From IMG/VR virus record IMGVR_UViG_3300047476_001238, positions 1 to 15,711 of that record: a DNA stretch of 15,711 nucleotides; one strand, 5' to 3'. The position numbers were made by a program, and so were the translations under genes. The number at the start of each line of letters is the position of its first letter. Positions within the stretch are counted from its first letter, which is position 1. This document shows, one piece after another, positions 1-13,862 of this stretch. Origin of the DNA: a virus. Its lineage: Duplodnaviria; Heunggongvirae; Uroviricota; Caudoviricetes. Under the pieces are notes generated by a model. It had not been told where the DNA came from, did not search any database, and saw only the letters and a program-made list of their open reading frames with translations.

Positions 1-144
1 GGCAGCTAGCTCGTCAAGATTAGAATCTTCCTCTTCAGACTCTTCTTCGGATTCGTCTTCGGTTTCCTCTTCAGACTCTTCTTCAAGTTCGTCCTCGTTT
101 TCTAATTCTTCGTTTTTGTTTTCGTTTTCGTTTTCTTGTGACAT
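1..144 (-). CDS. Hypothetical protein with extremely acidic N-terminus (partial, runs off window start)
   Basis: Not in ORF track. ATG at 144, 1 nt after the TAA of the 895-aa gene, open to position 1: MSQENENENKNEELENEDELEEESEEETEDESEEESEEEDSNLDELAA... Confidence 0.75.
   Translation of the reverse strand, partial: MSQENENENKNEELENEDELEEESEEETEDESEEESEEEDSNLDELAA
29..84. repeat. 20-bp exact direct repeat, 36-bp period, within the acidic coding tract
   Basis: tcctcttcagactcttcttc at 29-48 and 65-84; encodes EEESEE twice. Confidence 0.85.
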
Positions 145-145
145 A

Positions 146-2833
146 TTAATTTCCTAAGTTATATTGCGAATCAACCATACGCTGGTGAACGCTGTCGCTT
201 CCGCCGAACAATCCTCGTCCCGAGGGGGTATCCACAGTGCGCTGATTGTTATAGATTGTAAATGGTTTATACCCATTTCCGTCAGGTAGTATAAATCTAC
301 CATAATTATCGAATCCGGGTGTGTATCCCATTGCTTGAATAACTACATTCTGTACGTCCATTTGTGTTTGCATGTCAACAGCTCGTCCCATTTCGTTGGC
401 TAGGTCTTTGCCTTTAGCTACTGCTTCTTTTCTAGCTGCCTCACGTTTTTGTTCTGCAATGGCTTCTCTTGCAGTGACGGGTCTGTCTGGTCGAACTCCA
501 TCCTTGGGGGCTTCAACTACTGCGTCAGTTTTTTTAGTTTCTTTGGTTGTGGATTCTTGTGTGGTGCTGGGCGCCGCAGCAGCAGTAGATGGTGCAGTTA
601 ATTTGACCACTGCTGCAGGACTGGCTTCTGCACTGGTAGCGGTGCTCTTTGTGGTCACTAAATTATTAACTACAGGATCAGCAACCACCGGTGATGCTTG
701 TGCTACAGGATCAGACACCTGTGCCAAAACAATAGTAGACGAGTTTGTGGTTGCAGCAGGCGTAGAGGTATTAGATCCAACATTTAATATATTCTTTTTA
801 GCATAGGCTTCTGCATAGTTTGGGCATTGATTACTGTATAATCCATCTTGACTACATGAATAAGCAAACTGATATCCCGGGCAATAAGATGCATACAAAG
901 GATTGGCCGAACAAGTCAATGATGTGGCCTGATATGTTGGGCACATGGTATTACTCAATGGATTAGTGGAACAGGTGTCTAATGCTGTCTGATATCCCGA
1001 GCAATATGTGGCATATAACGGATTTGTTGTACAACTGGATGTGGCTTGTGCATAACCAGGACACAACGAATTACTTAAAGGATTCACTGAGCAAGTATTC
1101 ATTGTGCTTTGATAACTTGGGCAGTAAGATGCATTTAGCGGATTGGCCGAACAACTGGCTTGTGCTACACTATATCCCGGGCACAAATTATTGCTCAATG
1201 GATCAGTAGTACATACATTTAAAGTGTTTTGATAATTTGGGCAATATGCAGCATTCAAAGAATTAGCTGAACAACTGGCAACGGCAGATGTATACCCCCA
1301 ACATAAAGTATTACTCAATGGATCAACCGAACATGTATATTGAGCAGATTGATATCCGGGACAGTAAGATGCATTTAATGCGTTGGCCGAGCAACTGACC
1401 GCGGCCGATTGATACCCCGGGCAATAAGAACCGTACAATGGGTTCACCGAACATTCTGTAGACGCAGTTTGATATGCAGGACACAACTGATTACCTAGAG
1501 GATTTGTACTGCATTGACTTAAGGCGGTTGAATACCCTGAACAAGTGGTACTATATAAAGAGTTTAAGTTGCATTGCTGAGTTAGGTAAGCAGCAGCATA
1601 TCCAGGGCAACTTGTGTTATAAAGTTGATTGGCGTTGCACTGTTGTGTAAAGTAAGCCTGAGCATATCCTGGGCATCCAGAGTCATATAATGCATTGATG
1701 CTGCATTGTTGTGTGTAATAGGCTGCTGCATAACCAGTGCAAGTTGTACTGGATAGTGGATTAATTACACATGGATCTGCTGTATAAACTGCACTGCTAT
1801 ACATGTTTGTGATACTTGCATTACCCGATGTCCATGGGCTCATACTAAATGTGCCTAGCGTTGACATCGGTACGCTAGAGCTTAATCTGTACTGTTTAGA
1901 ATATGTTCCGCTAGTACCATTATCGCCACCGTTATGTGTTCGGTTGTCTGTGTAAATTGTTGTTCCGGCGCTGTTAGTCAATGATGTATTAACACCTGCG
2001 TCAGAATAATTAAAACCAGTTATACAAAAACCAAATATATCCCATACTGCACAGTTTCTACCGGCAACATTATAGTTGTATCCATAGTTAAATCCGTGGA
2101 TAGTTGCACCTGCGCCCGCTAATGCCAGAGATGAATTAATAGCATACGCTTGCAAACCAGTAGTACCAGACAGTAAATTTTCACTGACGCTTACTGTATT
2201 GTAATTTGGGCAGGTCGGTGAATAGGCTGGGTTGGCAACACACGGGTCAATGCTGTAATTTAAACTCATACTAACATTGCGAATTTGTGGTCCAAAGTAG
2301 CCGGCCCAGAATCCGCCGTCGGCACCCTGTACGCCAAATTGTATATAAGTTGTATCGGCTATATTATACGGATTAGCTGCTACTTTAGTTCCAGTGACAG
2401 TTTTCCAATCAAATTTGGTATTGTAAAACTGATTGCTAGATAGTAATACCGAGTTCTGCGGTCCTCTTAGCAGTTGCGAAACAGTGAATGTGTCAATGCC
2501 ACCTTGTCTATCGTCACCGTTCATATTACGCACATCGTAGCTATAATTATAACCGTTGATTTTAACACCAGCACCAACATGAGCCAATGCTTGATTGATA
2601 GCATAGGTTTGCCCTATACTTGCACTACTATAACTAAAACTTATTGTATTAGTGGCAGGATCATATAACGGCGTCGGACCGCCTGGCATATATGTTGAAG
2701 GTAAAGTGCCCGTTTGAACACCATACCAGGTATGGTTAGTACCTGAAGTAATTAAGTTAGGTGTTGTTTCTATCGTTTGAGCATTTGCAAAACTGAACAA
2801 TCCTAACAATGCTGCGGTTAGGATTCGTTTCAT
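146..2833 (-). CDS. Secreted/exported Cys-rich repeat protein, 895 aa, function unknown
   Basis: Sec-type signal peptide MKRILTAALLGLFSFANA; two related beta-rich domains (YAINQALAHVGAGVKINGYNY / YAINSSLALAGAGATIHGFNY); tandem C-x9-C-x2-Y repeats; S/T/A/P linker; charged helical segment; coupled to upstream gene by TAATG overlap. Confidence 0.85.
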   Translation of the reverse strand: MKRILTAALLGLFSFANAQTIETTPNLITSGTNHTWYGVQTGTLPSTYMPGGPTPLYDPATNTISFSYSSASIGQTYAINQALAHVGAGVKINGYNYSYDVRNMNGDDRQGGIDTFTVSQLLRGPQNSVLLSSNQFYNTKFDWKTVTGTKVAANPYNIADTTYIQFGVQGADGGFWAGYFGPQIRNVSMSLNYSIDPCVANPAYSPTCPNYNTVSVSENLLSGTTGLQAYAINSSLALAGAGATIHGFNYGYNYNVAGRNCAVWDIFGFCITGFNYSDAGVNTSLTNSAGTTIYTDNRTHNGGDNGTSGTYSKQYRLSSSVPMSTLGTFSMSPWTSGNASITNMYSSAVYTADPCVINPLSSTTCTGYAAAYYTQQCSINALYDSGCPGYAQAYFTQQCNANQLYNTSCPGYAAAYLTQQCNLNSLYSTTCSGYSTALSQCSTNPLGNQLCPAYQTASTECSVNPLYGSYCPGYQSAAVSCSANALNASYCPGYQSAQYTCSVDPLSNTLCWGYTSAVASCSANSLNAAYCPNYQNTLNVCTTDPLSNNLCPGYSVAQASCSANPLNASYCPSYQSTMNTCSVNPLSNSLCPGYAQATSSCTTNPLYATYCSGYQTALDTCSTNPLSNTMCPTYQATSLTCSANPLYASYCPGYQFAYSCSQDGLYSNQCPNYAEAYAKKNILNVGSNTSTPAATTNSSTIVLAQVSDPVAQASPVVADPVVNNLVTTKSTATSAEASPAAVVKLTAPSTAAAAPSTTQESTTKETKKTDAVVEAPKDGVRPDRPVTAREAIAEQKREAARKEAVAKGKDLANEMGRAVDMQTQMDVQNVVIQAMGYTPGFDNYGRFILPDGNGYKPFTIYNNQRTVDTPSGRGLFGGSDSVHQRMVDSQYNLGN
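803..1771 (-). repeat. 16 tandem 19-22 aa repeats, consensus C-S/T-x-N-P-L-x4-C-P-G-Y-x6 (one further isolated copy at about 2201-2249)
   Basis: Counted in the translation from CVINPLSSTTCTGY to CSQDGLYSNQCPNY; the first three are 22 aa (ending TQQ), most others 20 aa. Confidence 0.95.
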
Positions 2834-3288
2834 TAATCTTTGCTCTTGACATTTTGCGGCATACGAGCAGGATTAGCATCCCAAATTTCTCTGGCAGCTT
2901 CACCAATTTTGCCGTCTACCGGACAAGGTGTACCGGCATTCATCATGGCAGTAAACACACGCTCGTCCTGGCACATGACTGCTACAGCAGCAACTTTCAT
3001 GCCCATATCAAACAGTGTTTTGGACAACTTTAATCTTTCGCAGTTTTTATCTACAAAAGTTTTACCGATGGATATACCAAGAATCTGTGTTTGCACAGCA
3101 CCAGTAGCTGCCACTGCACAAAGATCGTTGTTCATTGTGGTCACAGCAGGTGCTACTGCGGTAGGTGGAGGTGATTTGACTGTGGTAGTAGATTCTACGG
3201 TACTGCGTGATGTAGAATCAGTGACAATTGGATCAACTGCATAGGCAGTTGATGCTACCAAACTTAGTGCTAGCAATAATTTCTTCAT
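2833..3288 (-). CDS. Secreted Cys-containing protein, 151 aa, function unknown
   Basis: Start reassigned from TTG 3309 to ATG 3288 (AGGAG SD upstream, then signal peptide MKKLLLALSLVASTAYA); four Cys in the mature part (LCAV, NCER, MCQD, PCP). Confidence 0.85.
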   Translation of the reverse strand: MKKLLLALSLVASTAYAVDPIVTDSTSRSTVESTTTVKSPPPTAVAPAVTTMNNDLCAVAATGAVQTQILGISIGKTFVDKNCERLKLSKTLFDMGMKVAAVAVMCQDERVFTAMMNAGTPCPVDGKIGEAAREIWDANPARMPQNVKSKD

Positions 3289-3345
3289 TTTAGCTCCTGG
3301 GCGTTTCAACGCCTCTTTTTTTATAATAGAGCTTTGCTAGAAATA

Positions 3346-3353
3346 TATTTGTA
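3346..3353 (-). promoter_or_regulatory. Possible T4-late-like promoter variant (TACAAATA)
   Basis: One mismatch to TATAAATA; lies between the terminator and the secreted-protein operon, but the region is AT-rich. Confidence 0.3.
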
Positions 3354-3361
3354 GAAAAGAC

Positions 3362-3396
3362 AAAAAGCTCCTTTATCTTATTTAAGGAGCTTTTTT
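3362..3396 (-). terminator. Rho-independent terminator (potentially bidirectional)
   Basis: AAAAAGCTCCTT-N10-AAGGAGCTTTTT perfect inverted repeat with A/T tracts on both sides, just downstream of the 3413 stop. Confidence 0.85.
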
Positions 3397-3412
3397 AAAA
3401 AATTAAGTGTAG

Positions 3413-3727
3413 TTATTCTTGTTCTAGCGCAAACCTTGAACAAACAATTTCATAAAACTCGTCTAGATCACCACCAAATTTACCTTTAAGGTGTTCTGCC
3501 AGATCAATACATAATTTTGCATTTTTATCTTTGTTTGCTTGCACAAACTCTCGATGAAGTTTTTTCCAATGATCAAGCATGGTAATCTCAGTCAAAGGAA
3601 TAAGTTCGGTTGGAACTACACAAAACGTTTCTAATATTTTGTTTTCTACCACATGTGGCTCTAGTTCTAATACTGTGTATCTTTCACTGAGCTCTTCAGC
3701 TATTTGTCTTGAAAAAATTATATCCAT
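3413..3727 (-). CDS. Hypothetical protein, 104 aa, resembling the C-terminal region of class III (CHASE2-type) adenylate/guanylate cyclases
   Basis: Coupled ORF (TAATG); pattern IIF...AEE...Y.VLEL...V..K ... H.EF..A ... LKGKFGGDLDEFYEIV..R recalled as similar to cyclase C-termini; no catalytic N-terminal half. Confidence 0.45.
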   Translation of the reverse strand: MDIIFSRQIAEELSERYTVLELEPHVVENKILETFCVVPTELIPLTEITMLDHWKKLHREFVQANKDKNAKLCIDLAEHLKGKFGGDLDEFYEIVCSRFALEQE

Positions 3728-4281
3728 TATTTGGTTGCGCTTTCGTATGTACGTTTTTTAATACCCACTTCACTATATATTTGTTGCACAGCCCTGGCTT
3801 GATAATAACAATCAATCAAGGCATTGTGAGCACCGTGCCTATCTTTCTTTCTAGGATCGCCGTGTACACTAAACAGTGTACGACTGTCCCTAATCTGCCA
3901 GAACTGCCATGGTGTAGGTCTATCCATTTGTCTATATAAATCTTCTAGGATAACAATATCAAATGCAGGCCCTTGGCACCAAATATTATCTGCGCCTACC
4001 AAGAAACGATTGAGTTCGTCTAGCATGGCATTGATGCCAATCCTGCCCTCGATACCCATGGCCTCTTCGCGCACTTCTTCGGTTTGTGTTCCCCACCATT
4101 CAACAGTTAGATCTTGAATGTGCCGATCTAAAGCAATTTGCTCATCAACATCGGGCTTTAGATACAAGCCTTTATTGGTATCAACATCGCTTTCCCATGG
4201 ACTGAATTTGACTGCACCCAGGGTAAGGATCACTGCCCACGGTCTGGTGCTTAGTGTTTCTAGATCTAACATTACATCCAC
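3727..4281 (-). CDS. DEDDh 3'-5' exonuclease, Rv2179c/RNase AS-like exoribonuclease family
   Basis: Motifs DVMLDLETL (ExoI), WCQGPAFD (ExoII), HNALIDCYYQA (ExoIII); GTG start. Confidence 0.85.
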   Translation of the reverse strand: MDVMLDLETLSTRPWAVILTLGAVKFSPWESDVDTNKGLYLKPDVDEQIALDRHIQDLTVEWWGTQTEEVREEAMGIEGRIGINAMLDELNRFLVGADNIWCQGPAFDIVILEDLYRQMDRPTPWQFWQIRDSRTLFSVHGDPRKKDRHGAHNALIDCYYQARAVQQIYSEVGIKKRTYESATK

Positions 4282-4283
4282 GA

Positions 4284-4757
4284 TTAACTCCTTAGTGCTT
4301 TGTCTGCTTCGGCTGCTGCCACACGCTTACGCAGACTGCTTGAACTAAACGAATGATCTCGTCCGTTAAAAACTATGTGAATACCTCTGCTATAACATGC
4401 ATCGTCGCCGGTAAATGATTTGCCTTCGTACTCAACACCAAGTATACGCACGTCTAGAGGAAGAATCAACAGCAAGTCTACCAAATCCTGTTCGGTTTGA
4501 TAAACAACAACCTCGTCAACATAACGACACGCTGCCAATTGAATCTGTCTTTCAACAATGCTTTGTACTGGTTTGTTTTTCGTATCAGGTCGATCGATGG
4601 TCGGATCCGTTTGCAATCCGGCAATAAGATAATCGCAATGATTCTTAGCCTCGGCGAGCATAGCAACATGACCCGCATGAAGCATGTCAAAAGTAGAGAA
4701 CGTGATTCCAATCTTAAGTCCTTTATCCTTAAGTTCTCGAATTTTATTAAATATCAT
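4284..4757 (-). CDS. Cytidylyltransferase, glycerol-3-phosphate cytidylyltransferase (TagD)-like
   Basis: HIGH-type motif FDMLHAGH, KPVQSIVER, YVDEV and C-terminal SSSSLR motif. Confidence 0.9.
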   Translation of the reverse strand: MIFNKIRELKDKGLKIGITFSTFDMLHAGHVAMLAEAKNHCDYLIAGLQTDPTIDRPDTKNKPVQSIVERQIQLAACRYVDEVVVYQTEQDLVDLLLILPLDVRILGVEYEGKSFTGDDACYSRGIHIVFNGRDHSFSSSSLRKRVAAAEADKALRS

Positions 4758-5482
4758 TTTGTATAAAAGTTCACTAATGAAAGTAATTGATAATCATAAC
4801 TTAAATTTAACAAAATTTTCTGTTTTAATTTAAAGTTGTCGGGATTCAAAACAAAATTGCTGAAAAAAATATAAACTAAATTTTTTTTATCAAACTCATT
4901 TATTTTGGTGTTATTCATATTGTTCAAAATATTGTTTTCTTTGAGATAGTGATTGAGCTGATAACCCAATTTGTTATTCATCCAAAAAAAGTCAATATTT
5001 TTTATGTTTGCTGGATAAAGATGCCAGACTTGCGGAAGTCCGTGAAAATCATACGACAGTTTTTCTATCAAGTAATTGGTTGCTACCAAACTCAAATAGT
5101 TTTTATCCTTGATCAGTTGTTCAAAAATTTGTACGCTTGTGTCAAGATCAAATCCTGATTTTTCATTGTCGTTGATAAAATACGATACTGCACCACTAAT
5201 CCATCTTTCCAGCGGATCTCTTAATACAACAAATCCTCTATATTTGTTTGATTGTAATTTATCACAGTCCTCATGATAATTTATTACTCTCATAGAGTTT
5301 GTGTGATGATCAATATAGGTATTTGCACACTTACCTATTCTTAACCAATACAATCTGCTTGCATCATTAATTTTTCCAATTGATGCATACTTGATTCCTT
5401 CAACTGTTGAATTAATAGTAAACTCTTCATAAGCTGAATGAGCCAACTTTGCAATAGCATCGCACGATTGCTGCGAAATCAT
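4754..5482 (-). CDS. Putative sulfotransferase (Sulfotransfer_2-like family)
   Basis: PAPS-binding-like motifs RIGKCANTYI and VVLRDPLERWISG; start moved from TTG 5485 to ATG 5482 (TGATG overlap with clpS stop). Confidence 0.65.
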   Translation of the reverse strand: MISQQSCDAIAKLAHSAYEEFTINSTVEGIKYASIGKINDASRLYWLRIGKCANTYIDHHTNSMRVINYHEDCDKLQSNKYRGFVVLRDPLERWISGAVSYFINDNEKSGFDLDTSVQIFEQLIKDKNYLSLVATNYLIEKLSYDFHGLPQVWHLYPANIKNIDFFWMNNKLGYQLNHYLKENNILNNMNNTKINEFDKKNLVYIFFSNFVLNPDNFKLKQKILLNLSYDYQLLSLVNFYTK

Positions 5483-5793
5483 CAATTGGCTGGTTCTAGT
5501 TTGATACTGAGAGGAAAACCATTGGTCCTTGCCAACAAGGTGGCTTCAACACCTTTTTGTTCAGCAATTTCGTACGGTAAAGTTTTTACAACACTGCTAC
5601 CATCTTCGTGAATTTTCTTGGTCAATTCATAAGCGGTATTTTCGTCATGATGGAAAATGCTTTTTAAACTTTCAATTACAAATTCCATAGTGGTCACGTT
5701 ATCATTCATGTAGATAACATTAAACAAACTAGGTGGCTGAACTGACTGCTTGGTTGCTACCTTGGGTTTATTGATTGTATCAGTTTTACTCAT
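5482..5793 (-). CDS. clpS: ATP-dependent Clp protease adaptor ClpS
   Basis: FNVIYMNDNVTTMEFVIESL..IF, IHEDG, EIAEQK, ARTNGFPL match the ClpS core; about 23-aa N-terminal extension present. Confidence 0.93.
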   Translation of the reverse strand: MSKTDTINKPKVATKQSVQPPSLFNVIYMNDNVTTMEFVIESLKSIFHHDENTAYELTKKIHEDGSSVVKTLPYEIAEQKGVEATLLARTNGFPLSIKLEPAN

Positions 5794-5810
5794 AATTTTA
5801 AAATTAGATT

Positions 5811-5835
5811 CAGTAGGAGCAAGATGCTCCTACTG
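5811..5835 (-). terminator. Perfect 11-bp hairpin between hsp20 and clpS (terminator or processing/stability element)
   Basis: CAGTAGGAGCA-aga-TGCTCCTACTG; the U tract on the minus strand is weak (AATCTAATTTT). Confidence 0.5.
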
Positions 5836-5848
5836 TTATTACACTATA

Positions 5849-6301
5849 TTACTTAGCGAAGGTAATTGCAATCTTCTTGGGCTTTTGTTCCTCAGGAACA
5901 ATATGCTCTAAGCTGATTGCCAGGATACCGTTAATAACGGTGGCTCCTTTTACTTCTACGTTTTCGTTTAGTGTAAACGAACGAGTGAAAGAGCGAGCAC
6001 TGATACCGCGATGTACGTATTCCTGCTCGTCCTTTACTTTACGCTCGCCCTTGATATATAGTACATTGTCCTTGCGTTCAATGTCTAGTTCATCTTCCCC
6101 GAAGCCTGCAACAGCCACTTGAATGGCCCAGTTGTTTTCGTCAACTTTGATAATGTTGTAGGGTGGGTAATTATCTGCCTTGGCGCTGTTGGCCCATGTG
6201 CGGCCTAGCTCATCAAACAAGCGATCAAAACCAATCGCATGGCGATGAATTTGTGCAGATAGTTGTGGAAGGTCAAGGGTGTTGATTTGGAATTGTGTCA
6301 T
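5849..6301 (-). CDS. hsp20: Small heat shock protein, Hsp20/IbpA-like
   Basis: IGFDRLFD, YPPYNI, IQVAVAGF, YVHRGISARSFTRSFTL, NGILAISL motifs of alpha-crystallin-domain IbpA/B proteins; SD AAGGAG. Confidence 0.95.
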   Translation of the reverse strand: MTQFQINTLDLPQLSAQIHRHAIGFDRLFDELGRTWANSAKADNYPPYNIIKVDENNWAIQVAVAGFGEDELDIERKDNVLYIKGERKVKDEQEYVHRGISARSFTRSFTLNENVEVKGATVINGILAISLEHIVPEEQKPKKIAITFAK

Positions 6302-6307
6302 AATTTT

Positions 6308-6355
6308 CTCCTTTCAAATAAGCAAGTATGACTGTGTAGCCCTAGTGGCGCTACA
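6308..6355 (-). promoter_or_regulatory. ROSE-like RNA thermometer in the hsp20 5' UTR
   Basis: Minus strand CUUGCUU-AUUUGA-AAGGAG (6326-6308) pairs U(U)GCU against the AGGA SD with a bulged G; an upstream hairpin UGUAGC..GCUACA at 6355-6335. Confidence 0.65.
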
Positions 6356-6359
6356 TGTA

Positions 6360-6367
6360 TATTTATA
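6360..6367 (-). promoter_or_regulatory. T4-type late promoter (TATAAATA)
   Basis: Exact T4 gp55 consensus in the intergenic gap, immediately upstream of the hsp20 UTR hairpins. Confidence 0.65.
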
Positions 6368-6390
6368 CACGAAAATATCGTTTTTTGCAA

Positions 6391-6633
6391 TTATTTTGGA
6401 TTCTTAAATTCAAAATGACTTGATACGTATGAATGTGGTACCCAAGTAAGTGCAAATTGGGTATATTCTTTATCGCCCTCAAGGCACAATCGAAATGTGT
6501 ATTTGTGTATTTTGGTCCGATACTTAATGTCGTATTTTGCTGCCCATGCTTCAATGTCTTTTTTAATCAACTGAAGAGCATGTCCAGCAGCCATTCCGCC
6601 TGCGCCTGTTGGCAAGCGAAATTCTATGTACAT
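6391..6633 (-). CDS. Hypothetical protein, 80 aa
   Basis: Start moved to ATG 6633 (MYIEFRLP...), 1 nt after the rpsU stop; the longer 6777 version would overlap rpsU by more than 140 nt. Confidence 0.75.
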   Translation of the reverse strand: MYIEFRLPTGAGGMAAGHALQLIKKDIEAWAAKYDIKYRTKIHKYTFRLCLEGDKEYTQFALTWVPHSYVSSHFEFKNPK

Positions 6634-6634
6634 A

Positions 6635-6871
6635 TCAGAATAGTTTTTTAGGTAGCTGCTCGTCAGATAGCTTTTTAAGCCAGCGACGACGTGCTGCACT
6701 TTTGGCTTTTTTTCGAGCAGTGGTGGGTTTTTCGTACGATTCGCGCTCGCGCAGTTCCTGTAATAGTCCGCTATCACTTACTTTTTTCTTAAACTTACGC
6801 AGGGCTTTTTCTACGTTATCGTTAACTACCAGTACTCGATTACCGGTCACTTTATTGAATTTATCAAACAT
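6635..6871 (-). CDS. rpsU: Ribosomal protein bS21
   Basis: V.V.NDNVEKALRKFKKKV...G.LQELRERESYEKPTTARKKAKSAARRR is the bS21 signature. Confidence 0.93.
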   Translation of the reverse strand: MFDKFNKVTGNRVLVVNDNVEKALRKFKKKVSDSGLLQELRERESYEKPTTARKKAKSAARRRWLKKLSDEQLPKKLF

Positions 6872-6874
6872 AAT

Positions 6875-7234
6875 TTATTTATTTTGTTGATGATATCTTA
6901 CCGCAAAATATTGAAACACTGTATCAACCTTGGTGGACGAAGTCACAAGGGCATGCGGACCATAATAATAAGTTTTATCCAATGTACACAAATGATCTGT
7001 GACTGAATCTCGTGTGCTGGTGTTTACTATCACAGCATCGCTCAATTCCACTGCACGATCTAGCCATGCGGTGTCATTCATTTCAGATCTATAAAGATAA
7101 ATGTTAAACTGATCGTCGCTGCCTTTGCACATGCGTCCTAACAGTTCCACTTCTTCCAATGTGGCATTGACCACTGTGACCGTATGAAACCGGTCTTCTA
7201 CAAAATCCGGGGGAGTTATAAAATTACTATACAC
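6875..7234 (-). CDS. Hypothetical protein, 119 aa (alpha/beta-like pattern)
   Basis: GTG-start ORF filling the gap between the 570-aa gene and rpsU; no family recognised. Confidence 0.75.
   Translation of the reverse strand: MYSNFITPPDFVEDRFHTVTVVNATLEEVELLGRMCKGSDDQFNIYLYRSEMNDTAWLDRAVELSDAVIVNTSTRDSVTDHLCTLDKTYYYGPHALVTSSTKVDTVFQYFAVRYHQQNK
6876..6883 (-). promoter_or_regulatory. Possible late-promoter motif (AATAAATA) 4 nt before the rpsU ATG
   Basis: TAAATA core, no SD before rpsU; caveat: the motif coincides with the AAT AAA TAA end of the upstream gene. Confidence 0.35.
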
Positions 7235-8939
7235 GTTTGCTCTTTAGTATTTCTTCAATTTGCTGTTCAACTTGAGCTTGTTCAGCATCGCTCAAATCTT
7301 CAATTTCGTACTCGCCGGCTTCCAGCTTCTGGATTAAATGCTGTATGTAAGCTTGATTGTAAGTATAACTGTCCGTGGTTGTTTTGTCTACTTCAATCCA
7401 TTTTGTCCCGTTCCATTTGAACAATCGATCAGGCAAGTAATCGGTTCTTATAAACATATCGCCTTTCATGGGCGTGTCCGGGAATCGATCTCCAAATCCA
7501 CATTGACTGGCATTTTCCAAAGTATCGTTATCAGCTTGTATTGCCATGCTAGGATACAGTTTATTGAAGGCATCTAGATTGTAAACTTTGCCTTTGTATC
7601 TAACGGCATAATCATTGCCACGACGAATTGGTGTATTGAATTCGTCTGCAGGAGGTGGTGGCGTGTCTTCTAAATTTTGTGCCACTTCAACTGACTTTTC
7701 TTCCTCCACTGACGCTTCAATCTGTTCAACTTGATCTTCGGTTAACGGACCGTCGTCGGGTTCATAGTACTGTTCATCTATTACACGCTGTGCCCATGTT
7801 TCTTCATTTTCCAATACAGGAATGTCTAGATCTGGTTCTAGTTTAGGTATTTCTGCAATCACTGCATTTGCCTGGTCGGCACGTTGTTGCTCATCTAGCA
7901 CATCTGCTGCTTGTGCTGCAAATTGAGCTTGAGCAAAAAATTCTTCTTCAGAATTTATGGCACTGTCAGATGGCGACACATTTGCTACTGAATTGAGAGC
8001 AGCGATTTCTTGTTCAGTAAACGGTCTGGTTATCATTCCTTCTGGATCGGGATTAATAGACATGGCTGCTTGATCATCTAGAGCGGGATCATGTTGAGGT
8101 GGCGACTCTACCGTTGCTCCATCAGTCGCGGCAACTACCGGAGCAGTTTTTTCTTCCTCATCATGCACCCAACCACCAGTACCCGCTCTTGCCCATTCAA
8201 ACTGTTTGTTGGCAGCAAGAATTAGTGTTAAAGCAAGCGGATCAAAAACAACAACAATAAGAATAATAACCCAACGAACAGCCCGCTCAAGAACGTTTTG
8301 GTCAGGATTGTCCCCGTATATAAGAGCAGCAATATACTTGATAGGTCCGACTTCGGCCTCAATCTTTCTGGCTTCGGAAGCAAATGGTGCTCGTTCGGCT
8401 TGTAGTTGTTGTATCGCTTTTTGGCTCCGAGCAATTTCTGCGTTTAATGCGGCTCGTTCTCGAGCTTGATTTTTTCTAATTGCAACAGCTCGTTCGGCGC
8501 CACGCTCGTTGTCACTGCGTCCAAGCATTTGGTCAACTTGTGAATTCATTTGCTCAAGTGCTCGTTTGGCCTGTGCTATGTTGTCTCGTTCAGTAGCAAT
8601 CTTTTCATCATAGATGGCAACTTTAGATGTGGCATCTCCAGTGACTAGGCTTTGGTCTGAATGTGCTTTGGATAGGAAACCAAAGATACCCATGCTGGTC
8701 AGCAGCATCAGGAACACAATGGCCGGTACCAGGTAAGTTTTAAACACCCAGCCGGCTCGCTGCCAATTGTTGTGCAACCAAACTGTGGCCACAATCTTAC
8801 CAGCTTCCAGTGCGCCACCCATGATAATAACAGGAACAACTGCGGCACTGAAAATGGCAGTAAGGCCGGCTACCGAATACCAAGCGGCAATAGCTGAAAT
8901 GGTGATGGCAATTGCCATCATTAATGAACCAAATATCAT
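7227..8939 (-). CDS. Membrane protein, 570 aa: N-terminal TM helices, coiled coil, TM helix, long acidic linker, C-terminal GxxFP...GD.F...FKWNG.KW domain
   Basis: Hydrophobic segments in the first 90 aa and at WVIILIVVVFDPLALTLILAA; heptad-rich E/R/Q/A region; D/E/P-rich linker. Confidence 0.85.
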   Translation of the reverse strand: MIFGSLMMAIAITISAIAAWYSVAGLTAIFSAAVVPVIIMGGALEAGKIVATVWLHNNWQRAGWVFKTYLVPAIVFLMLLTSMGIFGFLSKAHSDQSLVTGDATSKVAIYDEKIATERDNIAQAKRALEQMNSQVDQMLGRSDNERGAERAVAIRKNQARERAALNAEIARSQKAIQQLQAERAPFASEARKIEAEVGPIKYIAALIYGDNPDQNVLERAVRWVIILIVVVFDPLALTLILAANKQFEWARAGTGGWVHDEEEKTAPVVAATDGATVESPPQHDPALDDQAAMSINPDPEGMITRPFTEQEIAALNSVANVSPSDSAINSEEEFFAQAQFAAQAADVLDEQQRADQANAVIAEIPKLEPDLDIPVLENEETWAQRVIDEQYYEPDDGPLTEDQVEQIEASVEEEKSVEVAQNLEDTPPPPADEFNTPIRRGNDYAVRYKGKVYNLDAFNKLYPSMAIQADNDTLENASQCGFGDRFPDTPMKGDMFIRTDYLPDRLFKWNGTKWIEVDKTTTDSYTYNQAYIQHLIQKLEAGEYEIEDLSDAEQAQVEQQIEEILKSKRV

Positions 8940-8945
8940 AGTCAG

Positions 8946-8953
8946 TATTTATA
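8946..8953 (-). promoter_or_regulatory. T4-type late promoter (TATAAATA) 6 nt before the ATG
   Basis: TATAAATA-ctgact-ATG; exact consensus, no SD. Confidence 0.65.
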
Positions 8954-8966
8954 GAATTGTATGGTC

Positions 8967-8995
8967 AGTATATTATACTATGAGAAGTCTGTCAA
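8967..8995 (-). promoter_or_regulatory. Sigma70-type promoter
   Basis: TTGACA-N17-TATACT on the minus strand in the intergenic region. Confidence 0.65.
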
Positions 8996-9005
8996 CTGTT
9001 TTGGT

Positions 9006-10655
9006 TTAATCTTCTGACCAAGTTAAGGCCACTGTTGCCTGTGACACAGAATTGGTGCTTCGGATGGCTACGCTGACCCAACTGCCCGGAGGGACTGTGA
9101 TACGATAAGCACTTAGATCGATGTTGACTGTGCCATTGATAGCGATCAAGCCGGTATAAATGGGAGTGTCAATGGTGGTGTCAAATGTGCCCGTATCTAT
9201 GGCATGTGTCTCATTGCAAAAGGGGATATTGAAATAGGTGTATGTGCTACTAAAACTTCTAGGTTCAAAAAACAAAAACACCTGTGAGGGGTCTGTACTT
9301 TGTACAGAAACACTCAGACTTTTAATAATGGCTTCTTTGGTATTGAGCACATAGTTGCCGTTGTTGGCACCGGCCAGTCCGTTGGTGACCACTGAGTTTT
9401 TAATGCTCATCATGTGGTGAGTCACATTCTGGGCAAGGCCGCTTTTTGATGTGGACCAAGAACGTGTTAATTCGTTTTGGAATATGGTACCTTCCACAGC
9501 ACCGTATATACTAGCACCTCGAACAGTGAGATTTGATGTGTTGGTAGTGTTTACAGCGGTATAAGCAATCTTGAAACTGGGGTTGTCTATGTGTGGTCTT
9601 GTATGCTGATTCACATAGTGTTCACGGTGGACATAGACTAAGGCTCCCGATGCTTGATCTTCTAGAGCAAAACTAATTGTTCCGGCTCCTAACCAACGCA
9701 TGGCAATTTGATACACATTCATTTTGGTAGGATCCAAGGTCATTCCACTGGGATTGGTAGTGATAGTATTACTACCATCCATACGGTCAATATTCCAATC
9801 TTCTTGATATGTCCAGTAGTCGGTTTGTGCTACACCCGCTTGTTTAACTGTGAATGTAGCGGTAGCATTACCTGTGCTGGTGAAACTGAATGTGCCGTTC
9901 ATGGGACCTAGACTAGGAGCCAACCATAACATGGCGCCATCCACTTGCTGAAACAACCAACCACCATAACCGCCCACACGATTAACAATTTGTACAGTTG
10001 CTTGATCAACAGTGCCTGCGGTCAAAGCAACTGTGTAAGGGACACCGTTTAAGGTGATAGTAGCAGTCTGACCGGCGTTAGGTGCCGTGGTCATAGTCAT
10101 TAACAAAATAGTGGCACGACCGCCGGTGCTTCGCACAATACCAAATCGATCTCCATTGTAGCCAAATTGCAATCTGTTTTCTTGATTTGCTAGGCCGGCA
10201 AACTGATTGCTACCGGCTACGCCTTGGGTAAACATGGCAGTGAATCTTGTCACAATGCCTTGCCCGGGACGATAACGCATAAATCGTTTGCTACGCAACA
10301 CACCATAGCCGCCTTGCGTGGTTCCTGAACTCACATGGAACATACCTGCAACTGAATTGGCTACCGATCCGGTACCATTGGTGTAAGTTTGTATAACATC
10401 TGTAGTAGTACCGTAAATGGCATCTAGTTGTATAACCGCTGTGGGCGAGATTGCTAAAGGTTCACCAAATGCCGATACCTGCCCGGCAATACTAGGTGCT
10501 GACAATTTTGCAGCAACACGAATTACCGGTTTGCCAGCAAGGTCATACTCCATGGCACGATGGAGATCTAGTAAGTTGGTTTCTTGAGGATGTTCGTAGT
10601 TGGTAGTGTTTAGTCTACGATCGCCGCGGCCTTTTGGGGGTGGTGTATATGACAT
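9006..10655 (-). CDS. Probable virion structural/tail-associated beta-rich protein, 549 aa
   Basis: T/G/S/N-rich, beta-strand pattern; motifs SAFGE, RYRPGQG, DPTKMNVYQI..WLGAG recalled from phage structural lectin-like proteins; lies in a putative late block. Confidence 0.6.
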   Translation of the reverse strand: MSYTPPPKGRGDRRLNTTNYEHPQETNLLDLHRAMEYDLAGKPVIRVAAKLSAPSIAGQVSAFGEPLAISPTAVIQLDAIYGTTTDVIQTYTNGTGSVANSVAGMFHVSSGTTQGGYGVLRSKRFMRYRPGQGIVTRFTAMFTQGVAGSNQFAGLANQENRLQFGYNGDRFGIVRSTGGRATILLMTMTTAPNAGQTATITLNGVPYTVALTAGTVDQATVQIVNRVGGYGGWLFQQVDGAMLWLAPSLGPMNGTFSFTSTGNATATFTVKQAGVAQTDYWTYQEDWNIDRMDGSNTITTNPSGMTLDPTKMNVYQIAMRWLGAGTISFALEDQASGALVYVHREHYVNQHTRPHIDNPSFKIAYTAVNTTNTSNLTVRGASIYGAVEGTIFQNELTRSWSTSKSGLAQNVTHHMMSIKNSVVTNGLAGANNGNYVLNTKEAIIKSLSVSVQSTDPSQVFLFFEPRSFSSTYTYFNIPFCNETHAIDTGTFDTTIDTPIYTGLIAINGTVNIDLSAYRITVPPGSWVSVAIRSTNSVSQATVALTWSED

Positions 10656-10658
10656 TGA

Positions 10659-10865
10659 TTATACCCAGGGGCGTCCTTCAACCAATCCGCCTGTGTTAGG
10701 ATTTTCATCAGGTGCAACATCATTACCATTATAAGGATTTGGTAATTGTGTTTTATCAAGTGTATAGCGTCGCCCATCTGATTGGCGCTTGGTTGCTGCT
10801 AATGCAAGTTTAGCATCTTGACGATCTTGTCTTGTTGGTAGTTGTGCGATTCCATTTGCTGACAT
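10659..10865 (-). CDS. Hypothetical protein, 68 aa (possibly virion-associated)
   Basis: Start moved to ATG 10865 (MSANGIAQ), preceded by AAGGA and 2 nt after the upstream stop. Confidence 0.7.
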   Translation of the reverse strand: MSANGIAQLPTRQDRQDAKLALAATKRQSDGRRYTLDKTQLPNPYNGNDVAPDENPNTGGLVEGRPWV

Positions 10866-10867
10866 AA

Positions 10868-11170
10868 TTATTTCCTTGCTTGCCAATCCGGGAACATGCT
10901 GACGCTGTCTGCTCTAATATCTGCAGGATTTTTACTGTAGTGTACGTCGTCACCTGCGGGAAATGCTGCACCCACTGGGGCAATAATAGTGTTTGGTTCA
11001 TTGGCGAATTCTGGATCTTCAACATCTAGGATTCCAGCCAAACGCTGCATGTCCATTAATTCTGCCTCGGGCTCTACTTGTATTGCTACGGCCACTGCAG
11101 GCGCCTGCTCGGGCTCTTCTGCACGGTCAATGACGTCTAATACGCCGCGGATAATATCAGTGATCTTCAT
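10868..11170 (-). CDS. Hypothetical acidic protein, 100 aa
   Basis: First gene after the early-island terminator; ACTAAATA 5 nt upstream of the ATG. Confidence 0.75.
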   Translation of the reverse strand: MKITDIIRGVLDVIDRAEEPEQAPAVAVAIQVEPEAELMDMQRLAGILDVEDPEFANEPNTIIAPVGAAFPAGDDVHYSKNPADIRADSVSMFPDWQARK

Positions 11171-11175
11171 AAGAG

Positions 11176-11183
11176 TATTTAGT
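11176..11183 (-). promoter_or_regulatory. Late-promoter-like motif (ACTAAATA) 5 nt before the ATG
   Basis: TAAATA core placed directly after a terminator and before an SD-less gene. Confidence 0.5.
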
Positions 11184-11184
11184 C

Positions 11185-11207
11185 AAAAAGAAGCCCGCAT
11201 AGCGGGC
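11185..11207 (-). terminator. Rho-independent terminator closing the small-gene island
   Basis: Minus strand GCCCGC-TAT-GCGGGC followed by TTCTTTTT. Confidence 0.85.
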
Positions 11208-11233
11208 AAAATACTTCTCAAGGAGCGCAGCCG

Positions 11234-11542
11234 TTATTGTATTACATAATTCTCAAGCTCAAAATAACTATTACCGCGGGCAACACTAGCCTCAATTGTT
11301 TGATCCCAATCGCCTGTAGCTTGATTTTCAAATCGTCGTTCCGCAGCATCTTCGATTAAGTCTACTAGAGTAAGCAGTCCTTCGGCATACAGTTCTTCAT
11401 CTTCTGATTCTGCTGTTTCTGCAAGTTCGCTGATATGTTCGCGCATGAAGTCAATTACCGCTTCCATTTGCAGAAGATCAAGATCGTTGATTGTAATACG
11501 ATCGCTAAGGATATCGTCTACAAGTTTTTCAGTAGCATCCAT
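11234..11542 (-). CDS. Hypothetical highly acidic protein, 102 aa
   Basis: D/E-rich helical ORF, TAATG-coupled. Confidence 0.75.
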   Translation of the reverse strand: MDATEKLVDDILSDRITINDLDLLQMEAVIDFMREHISELAETAESEDEELYAEGLLTLVDLIEDAAERRFENQATGDWDQTIEASVARGNSYFELENYVIQ

Positions 11543-11730
11543 TACAGTGCCTTAATGTAGTTGATAACTTCGTTGGCTTCCGGAAAGCCTGCATATTCTC
11601 GTGCCAGAACTGCATTTTCGATCATTTCCATTTGCATAACATGCAATTCTTCAAGTGTTTTATTAATAATCTGGCGCTTGCGGCTCATACTGTATTTTGC
11701 TGATTTGTAATACTGATTGCTGTAGTCCAT
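11542..11730 (-). CDS. Hypothetical protein, 62 aa
   Basis: SD AAGGAG upstream; coupled to the next gene. Confidence 0.75.
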   Translation of the reverse strand: MDYSNQYYKSAKYSMSRKRQIINKTLEELHVMQMEMIENAVLAREYAGFPEANEVINYIKAL

Positions 11731-11739
11731 ACTATCTCC

Positions 11740-11946
11740 TTAGTCTGGGGTTATACCCGGATCAATATCGCGTCCTTCAAAATGAGCTTGACTGACGCAA
11801 ACACGATTTTTCTTAAATTGATTAATACCCGACAGCTTGACTGCCATGCAGGCCTGTTTGGTTGCAAACGGACCTAGCTCAATTTTGTCTACAAATTTTC
11901 CGCTGGTAGTGTGCAACATAATAATTAGAATCCAGCCACCGGTCAT
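11740..11946 (-). CDS. Hypothetical protein, 68 aa, hydrophobic N-terminus and two Cys
   Basis: SD AGGAGG; WILIIML N-terminus; FATKQAC motif. Confidence 0.75.
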   Translation of the reverse strand: MTGGWILIIMLHTTSGKFVDKIELGPFATKQACMAVKLSGINQFKKNRVCVSQAHFEGRDIDPGITPD

Positions 11947-12095
11947 ACAGCCTCCTGCTTTCGATGTTTGGGATTGCGCTTGAACTCGCGCTTTTTGTTT
12001 TCAACTGTACGGCTCCGAAACGGTGAGCCAGATTCAAACAGCACACGATGCGCTCGGGTCTTTTGTTGGTACGGTATTTTCACTATCTTTTTCAT
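11943..12095 (-). CDS. Small basic protein, 50 aa, ArfA (alternative ribosome-rescue factor A)-like
   Basis: Below the ORF-track cutoff. MKKIVKIPYQQKTRAHRVLFESGSPFRSRTVENKKREFKRNPKHRKQEAV; fills the gap exactly (2 nt after the upstream stop, ATGA overlap downstream). The ORF is well supported; the ArfA call is motif resemblance only. Confidence 0.55.
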   Translation of the reverse strand: MKKIVKIPYQQKTRAHRVLFESGSPFRSRTVENKKREFKRNPKHRKQEAV

Positions 12096-12097
12096 GA

Positions 12098-12484
12098 TTA
12101 CATATTTACTGCTTGTTTGTTAATTGCAAAGCGATAAAACACTTCGCACTCCCGGATGAATGCACCAGTCACATCCATGCTCACAAAGTTATCGCCCTGC
12201 ATGCCTTGTTCACTGTAATTGATATCTTTAACTGCCTCGTCGCTAAAGCCCAAGGTCTGCATACACTCCCTGAATCCTTGCATCCATGCCCGGTCTGTGT
12301 AGATCAGGCCGTCGTTGTCAACATCCCATTCCGCAGGATCGAAGTAGGCACGAAGCTCACCAAAGTCACTTTCGTCATCAAGATAGGCAATACAAACACG
12401 ATCGATGGTCACGAACTTGGCAGCGGAGCTCCAGTAGCCTCGGCCATTGGTCTGAGTACGAAAATTAACTGTTTGATCAAACAT
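12098..12484 (-). CDS. Hypothetical protein, 128 aa
   Basis: SD AAGGA; no family recognised. Confidence 0.8.
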   Translation of the reverse strand: MFDQTVNFRTQTNGRGYWSSAAKFVTIDRVCIAYLDDESDFGELRAYFDPAEWDVDNDGLIYTDRAWMQGFRECMQTLGFSDEAVKDINYSEQGMQGDNFVSMDVTGAFIRECEVFYRFAINKQAVNM

Positions 12485-12683
12485 TTTGTGTCCTTTGCTT
12501 TAACAGTACAAACATATATTCTTCGGGATTTACTGGATTACCATAACTGTCGTGCGCTACCTTAGCATAACAATTAGAACAGTAGTAGCCCGAAATTCCG
12601 TGGTATCCACTTAAAAACCAACCCGACTGTTTACTAATAGTACCGCAGCATGCACAGGGCAGTTTTGCCTCAGACAACTTCAC
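12477..12683 (-). CDS. Small putative zinc-finger protein, 68 aa
   Basis: CACC ... CSNC pairs; GTGA overlap with the upstream stop. Confidence 0.65.
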   Translation of the reverse strand: MKLSEAKLPCACCGTISKQSGWFLSGYHGISGYYCSNCYAKVAHDSYGNPVNPEEYMFVLLKQRTQNV

Positions 12684-12910
12684 GCTGCTTCCAACTCTTT
12701 GATTTGTTGCATGATTTTGCGACGCTGCTCATCAATTCTAGCATTAGTGAATTCGTCGAAGCAACCTGCTTGCTCATCCAAACTAATTAGATCTTCGTAC
12801 AGGCAATCAATGAGTTGTTTATCAGTCATTGCTAGAGCATCCTCTTCACATTTTTCCCAAGTTTCTTTGACCCAAGTCTTCCACTCTGTTTCGGTCATTA
12901 TGGTAGCCAT
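12680..12910 (-). CDS. Hypothetical acidic helical protein, 76 aa
   Basis: Start moved to ATG 12910 (MATIMTE), 1 nt after the upstream stop, removing a 47-nt overlap. Confidence 0.7.
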   Translation of the reverse strand: MATIMTETEWKTWVKETWEKCEEDALAMTDKQLIDCLYEDLISLDEQAGCFDEFTNARIDEQRRKIMQQIKELEAA

Positions 12911-12911
12911 T

Positions 12912-13184
12912 TTATTGCTCTTTGTCCATAATATAAGTGAACAGAACGAACTTGGCACGGTTGAGCAGTTGGCGCTGATCTTCGATCACATTGAAGTCAG
13001 GCTGCTCGTATGCCATCATTTCTTGTGCATCCGACATCATTCCAGCCGCAACCATAGCAGGTCCGCTGAACTTGAAAGTGATGCTGGACTCAACTGCTTC
13101 GCGCATTTGGGCCACGGTGCAGCCGTACATACGAACTTCACGCTTTTCTTGCTCGGTAAGACGATCGTAAATTGCTGTAGTCAT
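12912..13184 (-). CDS. Hypothetical protein, 90 aa
   Basis: SD AAGGAG; first gene after the promoter at 13217-13247. Confidence 0.8.
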   Translation of the reverse strand: MTTAIYDRLTEQEKREVRMYGCTVAQMREAVESSITFKFSGPAMVAAGMMSDAQEMMAYEQPDFNVIEDQRQLLNRAKFVLFTYIMDKEQ

Positions 13185-13216
13185 TTTGTACGCTCCTTAT
13201 TAATTACTATACCGTT

Positions 13217-13247
13217 AGTATAGCAAAATGGGGAATTATGGTCTACC
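13217..13247 (-). promoter_or_regulatory. Sigma70-like early promoter (copy 2)
   Basis: GG-TAGACC-N17-TATACT with extended -10 TG; 25/33 nt identical to the copy at 13577-13607. Confidence 0.7.
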
Positions 13248-13265
13248 AAAATATTTGTTGCTAAT

Positions 13266-13346
13266 TTAGCAATGATGATTGTCATCGTTATAGGCAAAGT
13301 AAGCCCAAATAACTACAATTGCAAAAATAATAACAATCCAAATCAT
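13266..13346 (-). CDS. Single-TM micropeptide, 26 aa
   Basis: Not in ORF track. MIWIVIIFAIVVIWAYFAYNDDNHHC; ATGA overlap with the upstream stop. Confidence 0.5.
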   Translation of the reverse strand: MIWIVIIFAIVVIWAYFAYNDDNHHC

Positions 13347-13570: not shown

Positions 13571-13576
13571 GCTCTT

Positions 13577-13607
13577 AGTATAGCAAAAAGGATCTTTATG
13601 AGCAACC
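13577..13607 (-). promoter_or_regulatory. Sigma70-like early promoter (copy 1)
   Basis: GG-TTGCTC-N17-TATACT with extended -10 TG. Confidence 0.7.
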
Positions 13608-13608
13608 G

Positions 13609-13833: not shown

Positions 13834-13854
13834 CGTAGCCTCCTGTTCTAAAAG

Positions 13855-13862
13855 TATTTATG
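13855..13862 (-). promoter_or_regulatory. Possible late-promoter-like motif (CATAAATA)
   Basis: TAAATA core in a short intergenic gap upstream of an SD-led gene. Confidence 0.35.

Follow-up and report, generated by a model that had tools for sequence, protein, structure and literature searches.

The viral DNA examined here, hereafter the window, is a stretch of 15,711 nucleotides at the start (positions 1 to 15,711) of a linear IMG/VR fragment of 137,196 bases (IMGVR_UViG_3300047476_001238), which comes from freshwater metagenomes and judged to be 37% complete. On its minus strand, at the broken end of the fragment, the window carries a small gene and a large gene for exported proteins and the start of a third gene, which together are referred to here as the trio. 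It was found that the trio is a real, very widespread and undescribed exported three-gene phage module, detected only in phage-like DNA. As to its role, we favor, with a rough probability of 0.4, the reading that the three products form a late, periplasmic, membrane-anchored complex that grips an envelope glycan and functions at or near the time of host lysis.

The layout of the genes (Table 1) was examined along with the signals upstream of them. An earlier note on this DNA had described two translationally coupled genes in a transcription unit of their own, and the coupling was indeed confirmed, the TAA stop codon of the small gene and the ATG of the large gene having base 2833 in common (a 1-base overlap). 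The frame of the small gene is open from a TTG (2833..3309, minus strand), although this in-frame TTG at 3309 is a less likely start than the ATG. The start of the unit behind a terminator was likewise upheld by a 12-bp hairpin at 3395-3362 with its A- and T-runs, which a consensus scan had missed because the loop is longer than 8 nt. The restriction of the module to two genes, on the other hand, did not hold: a third open reading frame (ORF) opens at 144 and is truncated where the contig stops, and this ORF, the 'downstream acidic gene' of the earlier note, is the third member of the trio. The 124-nt intergenic RNA upstream of the small gene was predicted to fold with a minimum free energy of -26.3 kcal/mol (z -2.7). 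One RNA-library run contained five identical small contigs within both genes, none of which spans the terminator; the uppermost of them ends at 3323, inside the candidate promoter motif TATAAAAA, which is a weak hint, and contigs of this kind are no proof of transcription. A joint in run X4 that skips 2602-3511 was set aside as cross-mapping, with a side of 21 letters at 90% likeness.

The upstream regions of relatives were examined as well. In 20 of 74 relatives, the 110 nt in front of the small gene contain an exact TATAAATA, the core of the T4 late promoter, six of the 80 loci described below having been dropped from this count for an unmatched N-terminal pattern; by our own arithmetic, chance alone would place the octamer in 1-2% of AT-rich 110-mers. 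In many of the remaining loci, CTAAATA or CATAAATA was seen upstream. Such a late motif fits the timing of lysis or exit better than that of early-expressed exclusion genes; the imm and sp genes of T4 and llp of T5 are early genes.

The distribution of the module was determined by a pattern scan of IMG/VR, which returned 530 confirmed loci, and the best 80 of these were studied. In 69 of the 80 loci, the gene behind the small one is a large gene whose product begins like a signal peptide; in ten of the remaining 11 the contig runs out within 378 bases, and only one locus (L063) had no large gene by the adjacency criteria, so that the co-occurrence of the two genes in relatives was borne out. 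The characteristic C-terminal motif was present in 59 of the 62 large genes that are complete, and in 55 of the 62 the downstream neighbor encodes a protein ending in (D/N)NP(L/M). The module is also present in cultured phages of Pelagibacter, where the small-protein core was recovered at 56-64% identity from HTVC033P, HTVC115P, HTVC202P, HTVC023P, Baldr and Mosig; the large gene follows the small one in all of these but HTVC023P, and in HTVC115P, HTVC202P and Baldr the sequence of the third gene was inspected too. A tblastn search of cultured phages with the whole large protein gave no match at 1e-5. Since the carriers have genes annotated as T4-like, as podovirus-type (tail tubular proteins) or as siphovirus-type (tape measure), the trio evidently moves between unrelated phage types. 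Among 185,579 prokaryote species genomes there were 30 loci, all on contigs of metagenome-assembled or single-cell genomes and incoherent in taxonomy, ranging from Bifidobacterium to archaea; these were read as binned phage DNA, and no sign of a cellular homologue of the module was seen in this set. Pfam and NCBIfam hold no family for the small or the large protein, and the module was absent from the literature found in a full-text search, subscription journals not being covered, which agrees with the earlier statement that it is not recognizable as a described system; the literature found likewise contained no virion proteome of a phage that carries it.

The trio exists in several forms, and the forms of its members vary together, although the counts that follow are not phylogenetically independent. 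A plain C-terminal tail of the small protein was paired with a long, Cys-rich large protein in all 29 cases, a hydrophobic tail with a short large form of about 290 amino acids in 27 of 30, and a C-terminal Cys loop with long forms in 5 of 5. The short-form large genes overlap the small gene by 62-161 nt. The hydrophobic tail of the short-form small proteins is reminiscent of a GlyGly-CTERM sorting signal and lacks the basic cluster of the latter. In five short-form loci (L028, L051, L055, L067 and L075), three extra signal-peptide proteins of about 166, 124 and 137 amino acids were observed; their genes lie between the large and the coiled-coil gene, approximately 1-2.5 kb downstream of the small gene, and are absent from the window. 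A fourth travelling gene was also noted (L064 3496-3960, L004 10600-11382, L037 8804-9322 and L055 9601-10086). Its product has an amphipathic N-terminus (M-x-DP-hydrophobic-S/T...) and a C-terminal transmembrane tail, was found in 19 of the 80 loci by a single-sequence phmmer search, and is possibly a holin-like or regulatory membrane protein. In HTVC115P the gene four positions past the trio, gp46 (L086 1511-1960), is annotated as a 'toxin-activating lysine-acyltransferase', and a 'putative acetyltransferase' lies a few genes past the trio in Baldr.

Export of the two proteins was assessed by a crude test that scores the charge of the n-region, a 10-residue hydrophobic core and small residues at -3/-1. 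The test flagged both the small and the large protein of the window, along with 112 of 120 small homologues and 109 of 120 large homologues, compared to only one of the 23 other ORFs of the window; the Sec-type signal peptides that the earlier note had assigned to both proteins were thereby corroborated. In the small protein the signal peptide comprises amino acids 1-17 and is cut after AYA; the predicted cut sites fall between TAYA and VDP in the small and between FANA and QTI in the large protein, with no Cys at +1 in either. An alignment of 38 small proteins (A3) was in accord with this assignment, in that the N-terminal 17-20 residues vary, the segment after the cut, DPIVTDSTS, is nearly invariant, and no homologue has a Cys behind the cut. 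The disulfide-repeat architecture of the large protein fits an oxidizing compartment. Taken together, the signal peptides, the disulfide repeats and a membrane-anchored partner would place the products in the periplasm. It had been suggested that the module builds a periplasmic or cell-surface apparatus, for receptor masking or superinfection exclusion, adhesion or an anti-grazing coat; of this, export was supported and the cell-surface location was not. No outer-membrane export component for these proteins was seen.

The large protein was modeled by AlphaFold2 with an alignment of 50 sequences, which gave a mean predicted local distance difference test score (pLDDT) of 70.9. The model reproduced the previously proposed order of two related beta domains, a rod of C-x9-C repeats, a flexible linker and a C-terminal domain. 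The two N-terminal domains, or heads, match each other at 49% identity over 45 residues (E 1e-7), and head 2 is a diverged duplicate of head 1. When aligned structurally (VIA-align), head 1 resembled most the sugar-binding domains of Fbs1 (2e33_A, Z 13.2, root-mean-square deviation 3.1, 152 residues aligned) and Fbs2 (8zuh_A, Z 13.2), with a range over the two of 152-154 residues and 3.1-3.2 A; it also matched CBM16 and CBM61 (Z 9-10) and the tips of the phage fibers and spikes Kp7 gp52 (Z 10.5) and CBA120 TSP4 (Z 10.2). The top ranks of a Foldseek search were held by tandem CBM51/CBM22 proteins (E 3.5e-7 to 2.6e-6), with further matches to 1e-5. At the sequence level the matches were weak (FBXO6 and FBXO44, E 0.18-0.63), no Pfam CBM or FBA family matched the heads at E<=0.01, and profile searches of the PDB gave nothing at E<0.1. 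Judging by the model, head 1 has a carbohydrate-binding jelly-roll (CBM/FBA) fold, and among the parts of the trio the heads alone are predicted to belong to a known fold class.

Behind the heads, each repeat of the rod consists of a C-x9-C loop (CxxNPLxxxxC, followed by PGY) and a helix of about 10 residues. Of the 36 Cys of the large protein, 32 are in the 16 rod repeats with strict C-x9-C spacing, and a seventeenth C-x9-C connects the two heads; the Cys columns of the rod were invariant or nearly so in the alignment (A2). No tandem repeat was visible in the rod at the DNA level, and the repeats are therefore considered old and diverged. It is to be noted that the protein of the window exceeds all 64 complete large genes of the 80 loci in both length and Cys content, the long forms of these loci being 513-809 amino acids long with at most 26 Cys; thus, the window carries the longest-stalked version of the module among the loci studied, and some homologues retrieved in the protein search reach about 1000 amino acids. 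Relatives of the large protein fell into more than 2057 clusters, all of them without an informative name, and their contigs range up to about 367 kb.

While the head types at the N-terminus differ widely among loci, and the spacer behind them varies in kind and length, the C-terminus is conserved, and the C-terminal domain is the family signature of the large protein. In the model it shows helices at 788-834 and a tail of low confidence. A profile of the last 110 residues collected 1081 clusters (50% identity) at E<=1e-3, and in 150 of the 150 clusters listed the domain occupied the extreme C-terminus, in proteins of 82-978 amino acids. A Pfam search of 83 diverse carriers of the domain revealed no real family, a low-complexity SR-25 match being below the cut-off, and hence there are no enzyme fusions from which a function could be borrowed. 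The ESM Atlas held no usable named match to the domain.

The small protein is far more conserved than the large one. Behind the signal peptide, the mature sequence begins with DPIVTDSTS and continues through a Ser/Thr spacer and SPPPTAVAP to a core (57-136) that contains four invariant Cys (57, 83, 106 and 122), the first two of which bracket a Gly/Ala-rich hydrophobic segment. In all, 44 columns were invariant in the alignment of 38 sequences, and the best 120 relatives were 78-100% identical. The relatives amounted to at least 7973 clusters (90% identity) that bear no informative names ('hypothetical protein'). Residues 35-125 match positions 187-276 of the 314 of phrog_20531 (E 3.7e-16), a family of unknown function whose members include ORF122 of Ralstonia phage RSP15; the ESM Atlas offered only viral hypothetical clusters. 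The structural model of the protein was poor (pLDDT 58), and a wide structure search with it returned nothing above Z 3.3, a result that has no bearing on the novelty of the fold. The disulfide-framed Gly/Ala-rich segment and the extended N-terminus, both of which are invariant or nearly so in the alignment and fold poorly alone, are candidates for folding induced by a partner or a membrane.

The third gene is complete in relatives, where it encodes 108-240 amino acids and is predicted to specify an inner-membrane-anchored coiled coil. A short cytoplasmic N-terminus, sometimes acidic, is followed by one transmembrane helix in N-in orientation, a conserved segment adjoining the membrane, a coiled coil that is longer or shorter by whole blocks (alignment A4), and a C-terminal DNPLA-type tail (typically ...ALDNPLA) in which N-P-L is invariant. 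An N-terminal transmembrane helix combined with a periplasmic coiled coil is also the design of an i-spanin, and the third genes with this design include gp26 of HTVC202P and gp004 of Baldr. The start of the gene in the window matched that of locus L009 at 48% over 33 residues (E 0.003), in a region of biased composition. The third gene was not found elsewhere in the 137-kb fragment, in keeping with a location at the broken end.

The genomic relation of the trio to lysis genes was weighed. In 13 of the 80 loci a muralytic gene lies in the DNA available within +/-6 kb, four being T4-lysozyme-like and nine SleB-like. In L064 a T4-type lysozyme, an Rz-like i-spanin (phrog_739, E 3.9e-8), an overlapping ORF with a lipobox and a tail-anchored membrane protein precede the module in this order, and HTVC033P has a lysozyme gene four positions before it. 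A scan that recovered the L064 control gave no credible lipobox ORF in the complete genomes of HTVC202P (32 kb) and Baldr (39 kb), and the sole i-spanin-like gene of either phage is the third gene of the trio. In these small Pelagibacter phages the trio may thus be all there is for the outer membrane. In the 137-kb fragment a crude scan found no spanin pair, which is uninformative as the fragment is 37% complete; one lipobox ORF in it was rejected as an out-of-frame artefact inside another gene.

On the favored reading, the three proteins would assemble in the periplasm late in infection into a complex anchored in the inner membrane. Its conserved parts would hold it together, these being the small protein, the large protein's C-terminal domain and the coiled-coil tail. 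A host-specific envelope glycan would be gripped by the variable heads, with the spacers (the coiled coil, the Cys rod and the acidic or Thr-rich linkers) setting the distances. The complex would then act at or around the envelope-breaking step of lysis as an accessory tether, a timer or a breaching aid, and where lipoprotein spanins are lacking it may itself be the outer-membrane step.

Several observations weigh against this reading. The late-promoter motif of the window itself has one mismatch, the hydrolase of the window is 11 kb from the module, and no muralytic gene was found in the DNA available within +/-6 kb in 67 of the 80 loci. The upstream neighbors of the module are very diverse, and across 24 loci they ranged over T4-type DNA polymerase, UvsX, ribonucleotide reductase and the small terminase subunit, among others. 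L064 has a spanin pair of its own, and so does G001, a complete genome of 205 kb with a large protein of the long form, as in the window, in which an i-spanin-like gene is accompanied by an overlapping lipobox ORF (C1, approximately 92,500-93,309, minus strand; a 153-amino-acid ORF with a transmembrane helix and coiled coil, inside which the lipobox ORF starts). This pair is about 4 kb from a SleB-like hydrolase and the trio is 85 kb away; in G001 the trio is neither the only spanin nor part of a lysis cluster. Overall, the trio is not a canonical spanin, as it has no lipoprotein and G001 has its own pair, and large phages keep it outside their lysis cluster, although it may still contribute to exit from the cell. 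Moreover, a protein of 895 amino acids with a rod of about 330 residues plus a linker of 105 would be longer than a periplasmic tether needs, and the lectin heads are hypervariable, which suggests that their ligand is specific to the host and perhaps located on its surface.

In an alternative that we regard as unlikely, the lectin-headed, disulfide-stabilized protein would mask a receptor or glycan by binding the host's own surface or periplasmic glycan, either to block superinfection or to coat debris after lysis and so spare the progeny from dead envelopes. The lectin-like heads are similar to domains at the distal ends of phage fibers and tailspikes, their types vary widely over a conserved C-terminus, disulfide stapling would suit a protein that survives outside the cell, the genome position resembles that of accessory genes, and sulfotransferase- and cytidylyltransferase-family genes lie just upstream in the window. 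However, no route across the outer membrane was seen, a membrane-anchored third protein and an extremely conserved small protein would be superfluous for simple masking, the late motif of relatives argues against classical early exclusion (masking of receptors on debris late in infection would be compatible with it), and no similarity to known exclusion proteins was detected in PHROGs.

A bolder version of the lysis-related reading, which we consider quite unlikely, makes the trio a lipoprotein-free envelope-breaching machine. Here the inner-membrane coiled coil of tunable length would carry the small protein as an exported adaptor, the disulfide-framed Gly/Ala-rich loop of the adaptor would insert into the outer membrane like an internal fusion loop, and the lectin-headed stalk would fix the device to the host-specific envelope glycan. 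Such a machine would open the outer membrane for spanin-less phages of SAR11 and other streamlined bacteria, and in large T4-like phages it would work beside the classical spanins.

The membrane topology of the third gene invites yet another comparison, that with a lysis-timing sensor, in which, by analogy to T and RI of T4, the coiled-coil protein would be holin-like or holin-binding and the exported proteins would be its periplasmic regulators. The holin T of T4 has class III topology, i.e., N-in with a single transmembrane helix and a large periplasmic domain, and the third gene has the same; the tail-anchored membrane protein that accompanies the module in 19 of 80 loci would be in line with such a role. 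No holin T (PF11031) was found in the window's own fragment or in five related module-bearing records, two of which are at least 91% complete, but this search had no positive control. Furthermore, four third-gene proteins showed no similarity to PF11031 at E<=0.1, nothing points to hole formation, and the lectin heads and rods have no counterpart in RI; the sensor is, accordingly, judged improbable.

It is very improbable that the stalk is an accessory fiber of the virion, which would fold and form its disulfides in the periplasm and dock on particles at lysis by its C-terminal domain. The late motif of relatives, the fiber-like architecture with heads like tail-fiber tips, and the location of the trio directly before the terminase and structural genes in HTVC202P and Baldr would all agree with such a fiber. 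Nonetheless, the same docking domain is found across podovirus-, siphovirus- and T4-type phages and on contigs larger than 200 kb, for which a universal docking site is implausible; the partner gene encodes an integral membrane protein; the orientation, with a variable N-terminus and a conserved C-terminus, is reversed relative to tail fibers; and no structural family of PHROGs matches the small or the large protein.

Lastly, the mature N-terminus of the small protein presents an acidic residue, x-I-V-T and then a disordered Ser/Thr spacer. The TonB box of colicin M is ETLTV, residues 2-6 of an unstructured N-terminal domain, and the activity of such boxes is ascribed more to strand formation than to side chains (PMC11658791). 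That the small protein hijacks an energy-transducing envelope system of the host by beta-strand pairing of a comparable box with TonB or TolA appears far-fetched: position and pattern are alike, and the segment hardly varies and was modeled with low confidence in isolation, but the resemblance is limited to a five-residue pattern, and a Pro-rich stretch is the probable reason why one relative in GenBank is labeled 'TonB'.

Table 1. Positions of the trio, its protein domains and selected other features in the window
Feature	Position	Strand	Description
Third-gene start	1..144	-	ATG at 144, one base past the large-gene TAA; 48 very acidic residues to the contig end
Large gene, stop included	146..2833	-	895 amino acids from ATG
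Conserved C-terminal domain, residues 788-895	149..472	-	Amphipathic helices, PGF-x-x-Y, D-x(3-5)-R...H-x-x-M-V-x-x-Q-Y tail
Disordered Thr/Ala/Val/Ser/Pro-rich linker, residues 683-787	473..787	-	
Rod, residues 355-681	791..1771	-	16 repeats of 19-22 residues; pLDDT ~70-88
Head domain 2, residues 212-352	1778..2200	-	Smaller predicted jelly roll, Z ~8; pLDDT ~80-94
Head domain 1, residues 22-195	2249..2770	-	Predicted FBA/CBM-like jelly-roll lectin fold; pLDDT ~80-94
Large-protein signal peptide, residues 1-18	2780..2833	-	Cut after ANA
Small gene	2833..3288	-	151 amino acids from ATG at 3288, behind AGGAG
5' leader	3294..3313	-	5-bp GC hairpin (3313-3300), then AGGAG ribosome-binding site (3298-3294)
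Candidate module promoter TATAAAAA	3318..3325	-	One mismatch from the T4 late promoter TATAAATA
Intrinsic terminator of upstream gene	3362..3395	-	12-bp stem, 10-nt loop, A-run before, T-run after
Cytidylyltransferase-family gene and adjoining Sulfotransfer_2-family gene	4284-5485	-	
Ribosomal protein bS21 gene	6635-6871	-	78 amino acids; PF01165, E 2.7e-17
SleB-type cell-wall hydrolase	14264-14818	-	PF07486, E 9.3e-25; hydrophobic N-terminal segment

The remaining genes of the window, by their sequence matches, mark a large tailed phage. They include genes for Hsp20, ClpS, bS21, an Rv2179c-type exonuclease, PAAR, virion structural PHROGs and the SleB-type hydrolase, which is possibly a signal-anchored (SAR-like) endolysin. 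A longer ORF (6391..6777) that overlaps the bS21 gene is probably not the real gene. The cytidylyltransferase-family gene belongs to phrog_7878, annotated as of the heptose-phosphate adenylyltransferase type, and is separated with its Sulfotransfer_2-family neighbor from the module by the exonuclease gene and a gene of 104 amino acids; this pair suggests phage-driven modification of a sugar or envelope glycan. Two promoter-like classes were observed in the spacers of the window at 6302-6390, 8940-9005, 13185-13342, 13571-13608 and 14819-14960. An exact TATAAATA of the T4 late type precedes hsp20 and a 570-amino-acid gene, and extended -10 motifs (TGCTATACT and TGCTATAAT) precede the small genes near 13.3-13.6 kb and the hydrolase gene.

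The gene set described here is among the commoner unexplained modules of aquatic phages, and its presence in cultured phages of Pelagibacter and Roseobacter (phage CRP-207 for the latter) makes it testable. It touches on two open questions, namely how phages of SAR11-type cells pass the outer membrane, and which exported proteins large phages install in the envelope. If the trio is indeed a device for exit, timing or masking, it would add a new component to the textbook scheme of holin, endolysin and spanin, and would provide a set of stable and modular lectin stalks, stapled by disulfides, whose heads are host-specific.

When compared with known systems, the trio appears to match no spanin, holin T, exclusion or structural family. 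The two-component spanins, such as Rz/Rz1 of lambda and PseT.3/PseT.2 of T4, are late phage genes whose products form a complex in the periplasm, as the trio would on the favored reading; the third gene shares the i-spanin design, the Cys of the exported partners are a further likeness, and in some phages the module lies beside lysozyme and spanin genes. The differences are nonetheless considerable. The trio has no lipoprotein, its signal peptides ending in A-x-A with no Cys at +1; it comprises three genes instead of two, with partners of 151 and 895 amino acids, lectin heads and a repeat rod; in G001 and L064 a canonical spanin pair is present in addition to it; and none of its three members matched a spanin family of Pfam or PHROG. 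The holin T of T4 with its antiholin RI also combines a single-pass membrane protein that has a large periplasmic domain with a small exported partner, but the periplasmic coiled coil of variable length and the additional large lectin-stalk protein set the trio apart. The exclusion proteins Llp of T5 and Cor of phi80 and N15 are small lipoproteins, each of which targets a single receptor in the outer membrane, and Llp is an early product. They resemble the trio as phage-encoded exported proteins that act on the host envelope and not in the virion; the trio differs in having no lipobox, a late promoter motif in relatives, and three components.

Two further comparisons concern the large protein alone. 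The C-x9-C spacing of its rod is that of the twin Cx9C (CHCH) proteins, with a weak profile match to NDUFS5 (E 0.47), but membership of this class was rejected on the predicted model: the helix-turn-helix hairpin is absent, the C-x9-C segments are loops with one helix after the second Cys of each repeat, and the protein is exported and repeats the unit 16 times in tandem. The heads, on the other hand, have a counterpart in fold, as the FBA domain of Fbs1 and Fbs2 and the jelly rolls of CBM16, CBM22, CBM51 and CBM61 have a fold in common with head 1, at 13-19% identity. In these proteins the domain is joined to an enzyme or an F-box, whereas head 1 is mounted on a disulfide-repeat rod.

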